Assembly (NCBI GenBank): GCA_013204585.1
Contig: JABMNL010000035.1
Location: 10,803 to 74,802, forward strand
Direction of reading: 5' to 3'
Source: SAR202 cluster bacterium
Lineage (GTDB): Bacteria; Chloroflexota; Dehalococcoidia; Lucifugimonadales; UBA3495
Length of the DNA: 64,000 nt
Shown: positions 44,447 through 57,799 of the stretch, piece by piece
How positions within the stretch are numbered: the first letter of the stretch is position 1
Layout of the letters: the number at the start of each line of letters is the position of its first letter
Position numbers and translations under genes: made by a program
The notes under the pieces: model-generated
What the model saw: the letters and a program-made list of their open reading frames with translations, nothing else
Databases searched by the model: none
Told to the model about the DNA's origin: nothing

Positions 44447-44569
44447 TGAGTGCCTCCTGGAAATGGGGAGTCCAGAGTCAAAATTATAGCACCGCGACTC
44501 CTTACGTCGGGCGCGTACTTAGTGCAGAAAACCTGAGTCCAAAGCCGAGTAAAATCTGTCTGGTGCGCT

Positions 44570-44598
44570 TTGACAACATGTAGGCCGGTCGATACAAT
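44570..44598 (+). promoter_or_regulatory. Sigma70 promoter for the DsbA-like/rnc/ftsY unit
   Basis: TTGACA (44570-44575), 17 nt, TACAAT (44593-44598). Confidence 0.75.
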
Positions 44599-44649
44599 CC
44601 AGACGTGCACAGGCGTAAGACGCGCCCAGCCGATTTGGGAGGTAACACC

Positions 44650-45282
44650 ATGGCCGATGCCCAGTTCACCACCTTTTACGACTTCCGTTGACCCTTCGTC
44701 TATAACGCAGCCGTGTGGCTGTCGAAAGTAGAAGAGTCCACCGGAGAGAAGATTCAAGTCGATTGGCAACCCTTTTCCTTGGCCCAGGTCAACAGCGACA
44801 AAGAGCAAGACATCAAGCTCTGGGACCAACCTGGGGTTAAAGACGGCTCCGACCACACCTTCTTGGCCCATATGTCCGGTTTGGCCGCCAAACGCCAGGG
44901 CGATGAGGCCTTCCGGTCATTCTTCATGACCTTGCTTCGGGCCCGTCACGAAGACAAGAAGGACCTGCTCGACCCGGCTGTCATGGAAGAAGCCGCCGTT
45001 GCCGCTGGTCTGGACATGGCCCGCTTCCGTGAGGACCAAGCAGACCCTGAATTGCTAAAAGATATCGGCGAGTCCCATACCATCGCCGTGGAAGAGCACG
45101 GGGCCTTCGGTGTGCCGACATTTGTTTTTGGCGAGGGCAAAGCCGCCTTCTTGAAAATGTTTATACCCCCAGATGAACAGGCCGCCGAAATTTACGAGAC
45201 GATGACAAAGTCCATGAGCCAGTTCGACCACGTCGGCGAGTTCAAGCGGCCTCAGCCCCCTTGGCCTCATGGGGTTATCTAA
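44650..45282 (+). CDS. DsbA/FrnE-like thioredoxin-fold protein, probable selenoprotein (TGA at 44689-44691)
   Basis: GGGAGG SD, then ATG 44650 reads MADAQFTTFYDFR-U-PFVYNAAVWL in frame with the track ORF 44713. Cis-Pro loop GAFGVPTF is present, with a SECIS-like hairpin at 44707-44722. Confidence 0.82.
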
Positions 45283-45988
45283 AGCAAACAATGCCTCGAT
45301 TAAGGCTCTCGAATCTGTGCTGGGGTTTCCATTCAAGGACCCCAGCCTGCTTCGTCTCGCCCTAGTCCACGCCTCCTACTGCAACGAAAACGGCCTCGAT
45401 CCGTCCGAGTCCTACGAGCGACTCGAGTTCTTGGGCGATGCTGTCTTGGAACTGGCCATCTCCACCGAGCTTTACCGCCGCTTCCCGGACGCTGACGAAG
45501 GCGAACTAACCAAGACTCGCTCGTCCCTGGTTCGCCGCGAAACCCTCGCCCAGATAGCCCGCCGCATTGACTTGGGCTCTTTTTTGATCGTGGGCAAGGG
45601 CGTCGAGGTCACCAACGGGCACCAACAGGACTCGGTCTTGGCGGCAGCATTCGAGTCCCTGGTCGCTGCAATCTACCTGGACCAAGGCAACGAATTCACC
45701 CGACAATTCATACTCAACCTGATGGACGCCGAACTCAACCAGGCCGAACAAGCCGGTGGGCCTCCGGAGAACCCCAAGTCCCGCCTTCAAGAGGTGGTGC
45801 AAGGACAGGGACTTAATCCGCCCACGTACCGTCTCGTAAGCAGTGATGGGCCCGACCACGACCCGGTGTTTACTGTCGAGGTTTTGGTGAACGACCTGGT
45901 CGTTGGCACCGGGACGGGAGGCAAGAAGTCCGATGCTGAAGGCGCCGCCGCACGGGCCGCCTTGGCCGCGCTGTCCGGCAACGTGTAG
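45269..45988 (+). CDS. rnc: Ribonuclease III
   Basis: ERLEFLGDAVL signature and a dsRBD (NPKSRLQE...GPDHDPVF). Confidence 0.96.
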   Translation: MGLSKANNASIKALESVLGFPFKDPSLLRLALVHASYCNENGLDPSESYERLEFLGDAVLELAISTELYRRFPDADEGELTKTRSSLVRRETLAQIARRIDLGSFLIVGKGVEVTNGHQQDSVLAAAFESLVAAIYLDQGNEFTRQFILNLMDAELNQAEQAGGPPENPKSRLQEVVQGQGLNPPTYRLVSSDGPDHDPVFTVEVLVNDLVVGTGTGGKKSDAEGAAARAALAALSGNV

Positions 45989-46047: not shown

Positions 46048-47004
46048 ATGCTCAAATTCTTCAAACGGAACCGCCAAGAGAACATTGAACACACCAAAGA
46101 CGCGGTGAAACCCAGCCGCGAGCGGTGGTTTGGGCGGATTCTTAGTGTGCTCCGGACATCCAAGCTTGACGATTCCGTCTGGGAAGAACTAGAAGAAATT
46201 CTGATTTCCTCGGACGTTGGCGTGGAAACATCGATGCGCATAATTGAAGAATTGAAGGCCAAGGTAAAGGAAGGGGGACTGGAATCAGGCGAAGAGATAT
46301 TCGAGTCGCTAAAAGAGTCTCTGGTCGCCGGGATAGAGTCTGAAAACGCCGAATCTCTATGGATGGACGATACTGAGGTCACCGGTCCGTATGTGATACT
46401 GATGGTGGGCGTCAACGGCGTGGGCAAAACCACTAGCATCGCCAAGTTGGCCTACCATTTCACACAAGAGGGCAAGAAGGTGATTTTGGGCGCGGCGGAC
46501 ACCTTTAGGGCCGCTGCCGCCGAGCAACTGGAAATCCTCGGAAAGCAGATTGGCGTCGAAGTAATACGCCACGAATCCGGGGCCGACCCTGGCGCGGTGG
46601 CCTATGACGCCTACCAAGCAGCCAAAGCGCGGGGCGCCGACGTGTTAATCGTCGATACCGCTGGCAGGCTGCACACCAAGTCCAACTTGATGGAGGAACT
46701 GCGTAAGGTACACCGGGTATTGGCCCGGTTGGAACCCAAAGCCCCCCACCAAGTTATTCTGACCCTCGACGCCACCACCGGCCACAACGGCCTGGCCCAA
46801 GCCAAGTCATTCAAGGAAGCAGTGGATTGTACCGGCATATTCTTGGCCAAATTGGACGGCACAGCCCGGGGCGGCATAGTTCTTGCCATCAATCAGGAAC
46901 TACAGGTGCCCATTTTGTTTATCGGCACCGGCGAAGGTGTTACGGACTTGGCCCCCTTCGACACCCGAGACTTCGTGGAATCACTACTGGCACCCGTCTC
47001 CTGA
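46048..47004 (+). CDS. ftsY: Signal recognition particle receptor
   Basis: [21 protein letters not shown] and [10 protein letters not shown]. Confidence 0.97.
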
Positions 47005-57439: not shown

Positions 57440-57799
57440 CTAACTAGCCTCGGCGATGGCCTCTTCGACTACGGCGTTCCCGGCTCCGACCATCAATTTA
57501 TTCCCTACTTTAATCAGCGGCCGACGCACTAATTTGGGTTCTTCCAGCATCAGCTTGACCATTTCGTCATCCGACAGTGCTTGGTCGGCAAGTCCCATTT
57601 TCTTTAGGCTGGGACTGCGTCGGGCGAAGATATTTTCCGTTCCAACCATGGCCGCCAATTCCCTAACCTCAGCCTCGCTGAAGATTTCTTTGAAGAAATC
57701 CCGGTCAGTGACCTCAAGTCCTTTCTGTAAGAGTAACTCCCTTACTTTGCGGCAGGTCGATCAACGGGGCCACCAGTAAAATTCGACGGTCTGGGCCAA
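57440..57799 (-). CDS. ArsC/Spx-family protein, probable selenoprotein (U-S-T-C; TGA at 57763-57761)
   Basis: AGGAGG SD, then TTG 57799 reads MAQTVEFYWWPR-U-STCRKVRELL, in frame with the track ORF 57440-57658 (RRSPSL, PKLVRRPL). SECIS-like hairpin at 57727-57745. Confidence 0.85.

Follow-up and report, generated by a model that had tools for sequence, protein, structure and literature searches.

Does the TGA codon that interrupts a DsbA-like gene in a SAR202 cluster bacterium end translation, or does it specify selenocysteine (Sec) at the active site of a redox protein encoded at the head of a probable operon with rnc and ftsY? The gene occupies positions 44650–45282 of the window, the 64,000-nt stretch of contig JABMNL010000035.1 that we analysed; all coordinates given here are on its + strand. 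Translated with TGA as Sec (U), the frame comprises 211 codons from ATG 44650 to the stop codon TAA at 45280–45282 with no further stop, and would encode 210 residues with Sec at residue 14. The Shine–Dalgarno sequence GGGAGG is read directly at 44637–44642, leaving a 7-nt spacer to the ATG, and a GGAGG-type motif precedes the start codon in almost all of 41 orthologous loci. Further upstream, a sigma-70-type promoter-like site (TTGACA-17-TACAAT, 44570–44598) agrees with the consensus at 11 of 12 positions, as a consensus match only. The TGA is codon 14 (44689–44691) in the context FYDFR-TGA-PFVY, giving the motif D-F-R-U-P-F-V with Cys at this column in homologs, and in the predicted product the tryptic peptide upstream of the UGA is ADAQFTTFYDFR and that across the UGA is U-PFVYNAAVWLSK. 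ORF calling begins the gene at GTG 44713 and yields 189 amino acids, and the frame from ATG 44650 merges with that ORF. An earlier sequence-only reading had built its case for a hidden DsbA-like selenoprotein on the Shine–Dalgarno sequence, the ATG, the in-frame TGA and the frame continuing into the called ORF, all beneath a consensus promoter, and each of these elements is present in the sequence.

Our analysis favours, with a probability of about 0.93, a single gene at this locus that is predicted to encode a cytoplasmic DsbA-like protein whose one redox residue is a UGA-encoded Sec, decoded by means of a selenocysteine insertion (SECIS) hairpin, and that probably heads an operon. A Cys-aligned TGA fixed across species, a covarying hairpin, and selA, selB, selC and selD in the same genome all support the selenoprotein that had been proposed.

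The TGA is fixed across species and aligns with cysteine

A homolog search covering 5.8 billion proteins returned two length classes, with close relatives of 189–196 amino acids that are cut right after the TGA and others of 210 amino acids. Eight 210-amino-acid homologs, which align with 65–70% identity and 100% coverage, read MAD..F.IFYDFR-C-PFVYNA, the Cys falling precisely in the TGA column; these and further Cys-type loci answer a check that the sequence-only reading had set for itself. In the species-level GTDB loci, which come without exception from SAR202/Dehalococcoidia metagenome-assembled genomes, TGA occupies the same codon in 41 of 41 (41–91% identity), and it does so in all 15 metagenome contigs that cover the site. 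The 13 codons upstream of the TGA are open and conserved in these 41 genome and 15 metagenome loci, where Y-D-F changes are synonymous only. Across the class, a homolog occurs in 57 of 401 evenly sampled Dehalococcoidia genomes, with one TGA in about 50 of 58 matches, and distant TGA-carrying members from other families (38–58% identity) place the TGA at the [FY]-D-[FY]-x-U-P-[FYWH]-V position in 15 of 15 fetched cases. A Cys-aligned UGA with conserved flanks on both sides, the mark of a bacterial selenoprotein gene, is found at more than 70 loci. With the TGA fixed at this codon in more than 70 genomes and carried at a word depth of 15 by a contig of the probable source sample, neither a sequencing error nor a nonsense mutation private to one strain can account for it.

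The same conservation bears on whether the TGA is a true stop, either in a pseudogene or behind a 13-codon leader to a real product of 189 amino acids that starts at GTG 44713. Gene callers and public records, which give a 189–194-amino-acid 'DsbA family protein' or 'hypothetical protein', agree with such a stop, as do the possible start codon GTG 44713 and the use of TGA as a stop elsewhere in the genome. More than 70 genomes that span 31–91% protein identity, however, would not all have fixed a nonsense mutation at the same codon. Nor would the 13 upstream codons be expected to stay open and conserved behind a Shine–Dalgarno sequence and a start codon, with Y-D-F changing at synonymous sites alone. 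Codon 22, at which the shorter product would begin, is a non-start codon in distant relatives (GTT, GTC, GGG or ATC) and has no Shine–Dalgarno sequence in front of it. We also rejected the 189-amino-acid product on structural grounds: it would start inside helix 1 and lose strand 1 and the whole active-site motif, including the invariant D11, U14, P15 and V17. A true stop is therefore very unlikely, and the TGA at 44689–44691 almost certainly specifies selenocysteine in a small DsbA-like redox protein of the cytoplasm.

A hairpin follows the UGA

Immediately 3′ of the UGA, the predicted mRNA forms a hairpin of 7 bp with one bulged U (CGCAGCC/GUGU/GGCUG(U)CG, 44706–44724) whose loop, at 44713–44716, begins at the 22nd nucleotide after the UGA. 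This element, noted earlier as gcagcc-GTGT-ggctgt and taken there as a SECIS, is present as described, and its assignment is strengthened by covariation, by stability beyond that of recoded sequences and by its degradation in Cys forms. A 71-nt region folds at −22.4 kcal/mol (z = −2.3 versus shuffles). To separate RNA from protein constraint, ten codons were recoded synonymously 500 times; the native window hairpin has a minimum free energy of −9.9 kcal/mol versus −5.1 ± 1.6 kcal/mol for the recodings, 0.4% of which are as stable, and the hairpin is more stable than its own recoded mean in 30 of 30 diverse orthologs. Within 41 distinct close sequences the closing pair covaries, being C-G in 27 and U-A in 13, and the upper pairs are nearly invariant. 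This closing pair joins the third base of an Asn codon (AAC or AAT) to the third base of a Ser, Ala or Thr codon, with TCG, GCG and ACG on the 3′ side set against GCA and ACA.

Folded one sequence at a time, every Sec-type gene forms the hairpin over codons +5 to +11, and in other clades it occupies the same place with a different stem sequence and bulge register, as in UUGCAGC-AGUCUG-GCUGCAA. RNAalifold, applied to a gapless codon alignment of 30 diverse Sec-type orthologs, missed the hairpin and produced nothing but a spurious 3-bp helix, as the bulge is in a different register from clade to clade; support for the structure thus comes from folds of single sequences and from base pairs that we specified ourselves. 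An Rfam scan of 44550–44850 at E ≤ 10 likewise matched no family, bacterial SECIS elements being too short and too diverse for such a scan. Contig depth in marine metagenome runs is far greater over the segment 44664–44715 than over the remainder of the gene, which shows that its DNA is most strongly conserved between the UGA and the hairpin; within the hairpin, this conservation is partly confounded with that of the peptide N-A-A-V-W-L.

Cys-type genes offer a comparison, limited to seven DNA sequences gathered protein by protein, in which the hairpin is weaker and in a different register (−5.6 ± 1.1 kcal/mol versus −9.7 ± 0.9 kcal/mol, Mann–Whitney p = 6e-5). The Cys-type peptide N-A-T-M-W-L-E differs from the Sec-type N-A-A-V-W-L-S/A exactly where the stem needs it. 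A metagenome scan seeded with a Cys-type query recovered the 15 site-covering contigs described above, all of them Sec-type and none Cys-type.

Two finer features of the element hold in part. The earlier reading placed a G first in the apical loop, which is true of the window, whereas many orthologs have A at that position; the loop bases conserved in the alignment of close sequences are U-G-U, which puts the conserved G third in the loop within the window's clade. The hairpin immediately 3′ of the UGA carries the conserved G-U in its apical loop that is typical of a SECIS. The lower stem that had also been suggested, CUUC at 44694–44697 with GAAG at 44731–44734 (44694–44734 in all), encloses the upper hairpin and is paired in 87.8% of cells across the 41 sequences versus 33–70% when the 3′ partner is slid, but its changes are almost all one-sided G-U wobbles and it does not show in more distant relatives. 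It is possible that this lower stem belongs to the SECIS.

The genome encodes selenocysteine machinery and further Sec candidates

The sequence-only reading had named selA, selB, selC and selD elsewhere in the genome as a check, and all four are found in the 3.1-Mb source genome. The selA match scores 458 bits and the selB match 262 bits, above the NCBIfam cut-off; selD carries an in-frame TGA of its own; and the tRNA-Sec (selC) is 97 nt long with anticodon UCA and a long extra arm. In the genome's contigs, selB lies at C12:26921–28615 and the tRNA-Sec gene at C27:79215–79311. TGA ends 219 of 1467 long open frames in this genome, and we accordingly rejected genome-wide reassignment of the codon. 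Three other DsbA-family genes and an ArsC-like gene in the same genome have TGA at the position of an active-site Cys, the DsbA-family paralogs with UPWC, UPYC and UPHS sites. Together with the window gene and selD these make at least six Sec-candidate genes (four DsbA-family, one ArsC-like, and selD), a number in one genome that suggests that SAR202 selenoproteomes have been under-counted. In a 2016 survey, the only SAR202 single-cell genome available at the time had been scored as without the Sec trait, and our literature search found no paper on SAR202 selenoproteins.

These genes also weigh on a second way of decoding the codon, in which the UGA is read through without Sec, by near-cognate Trp, Cys or Arg suppression or by a lineage-specific reassignment, and the hairpin acts only as a stimulator. 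Downstream structure can stimulate stop-codon read-through, and such read-through is known in general. Yet the genome holds a complete and evidently used Sec system, including the Sec-encoded selD; TGA is not reassigned genome-wide; and the same codon recurs at active-site Cys positions in the three other DsbA-family genes and the ArsC-like gene. At the window locus itself, the codon aligns only with Cys, the standard counterpart of Sec, at a redox active site, and the hairpin is placed and sized like a bacterial SECIS element. Read-through without Sec is thus extremely unlikely. Under the selenocysteine reading, the hairpin at 44706–44724 in the mRNA would recruit SelB with Sec-tRNA(Sec), and Sec would be inserted at UGA 44689–44691 in place of termination.

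A predicted DsbA fold with a single redox residue

The full protein matches the Pfam DSBA profile (PF01323) with 57.4 bits and an E value of 2e-15 (cut-off 25.6) and the Rv2466c-like profile PF22234 with 34 bits (cut-off 27); an NCBIfam scan of all 210 residues assigned no family. An AlphaFold2 model based on a 26-sequence alignment (pLDDT 89.7, pTM 0.86) shows a thioredoxin fold with a helical insert, in the order strand–helix–strand, helical insert, strand–strand–helix. This fold and the above-cut-off PF01323 score place the protein in the DsbA-like domain family. The top 50 PDB matches found with Foldseek are all DsbA-fold proteins, comprising DsbA-like oxidoreductases, YjbH, kappa-class GSTs and HCCA isomerases. 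Strand 1 spans residues 5–10, and in the model Sec14 lies at the N terminus of helix 1, facing a conserved G-V-P-T loop. Residues D11, U/C14, P15, V17, Q46, N48 and W58 are invariant in the 26-sequence alignment, as are F153-G154 and P156-T157 of the cis-Pro-type loop, and R99-H100 and H143 are nearly so.

The window protein contains no cysteine, and the position +3 after Sec is Val17, invariant in 26 of 26 aligned family members; Cys forms also have Val there (CPFV or CPWV). Sec would therefore be the sole redox residue, and the same applies to the single Cys of the Cys forms, in keeping with the earlier proposal of a U-P-F-V site without a resolving Cys. With strand 1 beginning at residue 5 there is no room for a signal peptide, and the protein is thus predicted to be cytoplasmic. 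A periplasmic DsbA role was rejected, as the protein has neither a signal peptide nor a CxxC motif.

Lacking a resolving Cys, the enzyme would have to use one-selenol (monothiol-type) chemistry. Sec14 may attack a disulfide, sulfenate or S-thiolated substrate to form a selenenylsulfide, which an external thiol or a thioredoxin-like partner would then resolve. Genes for OsmC and glutaredoxin adjoin some Cys-type homologs, and these neighbours hint at an antioxidant role.

Relation to known families and structures

Two catalogued families fit the window protein. 'DsbA 3' of the Global Ocean Sampling selenoproteome is a pfam01323 family with a UxxV motif, for which Zhang & Gladyshev (2008, PMC2398784) list 5 Sec sequences along with 72 Cys homologs; a 2026 catalogue of prokaryotic selenoproteins (PMC13188914) has 'DsbA-like protein form 2', a PF01323 family with a DxxUP motif and MDP6049977.1 as its representative. 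D-F-R-U-P-F-V fits both UxxV and DxxUP, the Pfam domain is the same, and both families are of marine or aquatic metagenomic origin with Cys-containing homologs. On domain and motif only, the window gene matches the catalogued 'DsbA 3 (UxxV)'/'DsbA-like form 2 (DxxUP)' as a probable member. Neither publication places the family in SAR202/Dehalococcoidia or mentions a link to rnc.

The closest structure belongs to a cytoplasmic DsbA-like protein with one Cys, DR2335 of Deinococcus radiodurans (PDB 7DK9; C24S mutant 7DKA), which matches with a phmmer E value of 3e-22 over residues 3–203 and a Foldseek E value of 1e-12 (TM 0.79). Both proteins have an F-D-F-x-C-P-[YF]-type motif and a single redox residue without a resolving Cys, but DR2335 has Cys rather than Sec, is only 26–29% identical and has an insertion following strand 2. 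According to a review from 2022 (PMC8945050), functional data on DR2335 do not exist, and there is therefore no function to transfer; a literature search on PDB 7DK9 found no paper.

The window protein also shares a DsbA-like fold, a Sec or Cys at the N terminus of helix 1 and a cytoplasmic location with the DsbA-like selenoproteins 'form 1' or 'DsbA 1', described with a UxxC motif from the Sargasso Sea in 2005 (PMC1088965), and with FrnE/Rv2466c-type reductases (Foldseek TM 0.71–0.73 to Rv2466c and about 0.6 to FrnE). These types use a dithiol or selenol–thiol U/CxxC site, whereas the window protein has an invariant Val as the fourth residue; this Val and the UPWC, UPYC and UPHS paralogs in the same genome argue that the window gene represents a separate subfamily. 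It stands apart from the classical DsbA/FrnE dithiol proteins (C/U-x-x-C) in having U-P-F-V, no Cys and no signal peptide, and from the Rv2466c-like mycothiol-dependent reductases (PF22234) in lacking the second Cys and matching DR2335 much more strongly. Kappa-class GSTs and 2-hydroxychromene-2-carboxylate isomerases have the same DsbA-like fold and match more weakly (TM 0.57–0.59); we take their catalytic residue to be a Ser at the same position, in a D-x-x-S-P-[FY]-S-[YW]-type motif.

A conserved junction with rnc

The DsbA-like gene would come first in a probable operon, DsbA-like–rnc–ftsY–DUF2298, behind the near-consensus promoter. The rnc open reading frame (45269–45988), for RNase III, has orthologs with the Pfam domains Ribonuclease_3 and dsrm in loci L055 and L077; the ftsY open reading frame (46048–47004), for the SRP receptor, starts 59 nt after rnc and has an ortholog with SRP54_N and SRP54 in L055. 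The rnc ATG at 45269 falls within the His-Gly codons of the DsbA-like C terminus, creating a 14-nt overlap that the sequence-only reading had pointed out and that belongs to a tight arrangement conserved class-wide. The order cca (− strand), DsbA-like, rnc, ftsY, DUF2298 is kept in 39 of 41 species loci, ftsY keeps its place in nearly all those SAR202 loci that extend far enough to show it, and rnc lies directly downstream of the DsbA-like gene in 11 of 20 loci from other Dehalococcoidia families. In 57 of the 62 loci compared, no more than 25 nt separate the inferred rnc start from the DsbA-like stop codon, and in 42 the two overlap; the tight junction persists in orthologs down to 31–45% identity. 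An overlapping start is usually the same ATG, in the C-AUG-GGG of a conserved ...W-P-H-G-V-I end. In the window sequence no GGAGG-like motif or Shine–Dalgarno sequence precedes the rnc ATG, and on the + strand no terminator-like site lies between the operon genes. The tight or overlapping junction, with no Shine–Dalgarno sequence before the window's rnc ATG, makes co-transcription and translational coupling plausible. A search for RNA sequencing runs that might bear on this returned DNA runs only.

Such coupling could in principle make the operon depend on selenium, as had been proposed: ribosomes would reach rnc, and perhaps ftsY, mainly by finishing the Sec-dependent frame, and when selenium or SelB is limiting they would stop at UGA-14, leave about 590 nt untranslated and lower RNase III and FtsY synthesis through lost translational coupling or Rho polarity. 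The single near-consensus promoter ahead of the DsbA-like gene, the run of genes free of terminator-like sites, the overlap without a GGAGG and the class-wide tightness of the junction are all compatible with such a gate. The arrangement itself, however, neither requires nor follows Sec use, for three Cys-type genes have the same rnc junction (L055 and L077, both of which share the ATG overlap, as well as L099); it is therefore old and independent of Sec. The overlapping ATG has moreover been lost in 14 of 39 close relatives, which have His CAC instead of CAT, and in many of these a TAGGAG embedding the stop codon, which would serve rnc as its own ribosome-binding site, precedes a start codon TTG or GTG. 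A second, weak promoter-like site lies inside ftsY, a gene that is normally essential and that would be risky to tie to a trace element. We regard a selenium gate on this operon as improbable. Of the sequence-only reading as a whole, the selenoprotein, the SECIS and the operon layout stand, and the selenium link to RNase III and FtsY is left unsupported by the shared arrangement of the Cys-type loci.

The pairing of the DsbA-like gene with rnc might nevertheless be more than inherited gene order, acting either as a selenium- or SelB-dependent throttle on RNase III or through a DsbA-like protein that serves as a redox partner or adaptor of RNase III or FtsY, in the way that YjbH, another protein of the DsbA fold, acts as an adaptor for Spx. 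We hold this, too, to be a long shot.

Implications for SAR202 and the family

The window gene is a real and well-supported predicted selenoprotein gene and probably a further member of a catalogued family, of an already known kind. Its significance lies mainly in annotation. SAR202 and other Dehalococcoidia are abundant ocean bacteria, and across them public records store this gene as 189–194 residues without the active site; redox inventories of their genomes therefore miss it. With only one reactive residue, the family offers a clean, naturally occurring Sec/Cys pair, which makes it convenient for asking what selenium buys a monothiol-type enzyme of the DsbA fold. The conserved coupling to rnc is the only part of the finding that could lead to new biology.

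Candidate selenoprotein genes in the SAR202 genome

The genome (G000) of the DsbA-like selenoprotein gene (window positions 44650–45282, plus strand) has four matches to PF01323 (DSBA), and in all of them an in-frame TGA occupies the active-site position. Three paralogues (loci L100–L102) map to G000:C30:148010–148573 (minus strand), G000:C29:51333–51908 (minus strand) and G000:C27:31580–32155 (plus strand), and each has a hairpin 3′ of the UGA. Their active-site motifs read VWYDYV-U-PWC, IWHDYT-U-PYC and VWFDYT-U-PHS. A further candidate Sec open reading frame, resembling ArsC/Spx, occupies window positions 57440–57799 on the minus strand, with a TTG start and a TGA at codon 13. Translation with readthrough of this TGA leaves 119 residues open and places the codon in a UxxC motif (EFYWWPR-U-STC-RKV). 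Together with selD, which has an in-frame TGA of its own, the four DSBA genes and the ArsC-like gene bring the Sec candidates in this single SAR202 genome to at least six.

Conservation of the SECIS region

In two marine metagenome runs (X2 and X6), short contig fragments belonging to other organisms of the community matched only window positions 44664–44715, the segment from UGA to hairpin. Their summed depth reached up to 354 there, versus about 5 across the remaining gene. Within the DsbA-like gene family, the SECIS region is thus the stretch with the strongest conservation of DNA sequence.

Cys-type homologues and habitat

Two Cys-type homologues from other Dehalococcoidia genomes (loci L095 and L096; G066:C4:36907–37512 and G249:C22:9346–9942) were each reported with one in-frame TAG, rather than a TGA, somewhere within the match, and retain an intact Cys site (GDFT-C-PWVYQ). 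Some Cys-type homologues with 67–68% identity (L075, 982–1799; L076, 1049–1498) are not adjacent to rnc. An OsmC-family gene follows in both loci, as does a glutaredoxin gene in L075; these neighbours hint at a link between the DsbA-like family and peroxide or thiol stress. The sequencing run containing 99% of the window's words (X1) is labelled freshwater metagenome, and close relatives were found in assemblies of marine and Caspian Sea origin. This SAR202 genome may thus come from a brackish or freshwater habitat rather than the open ocean.
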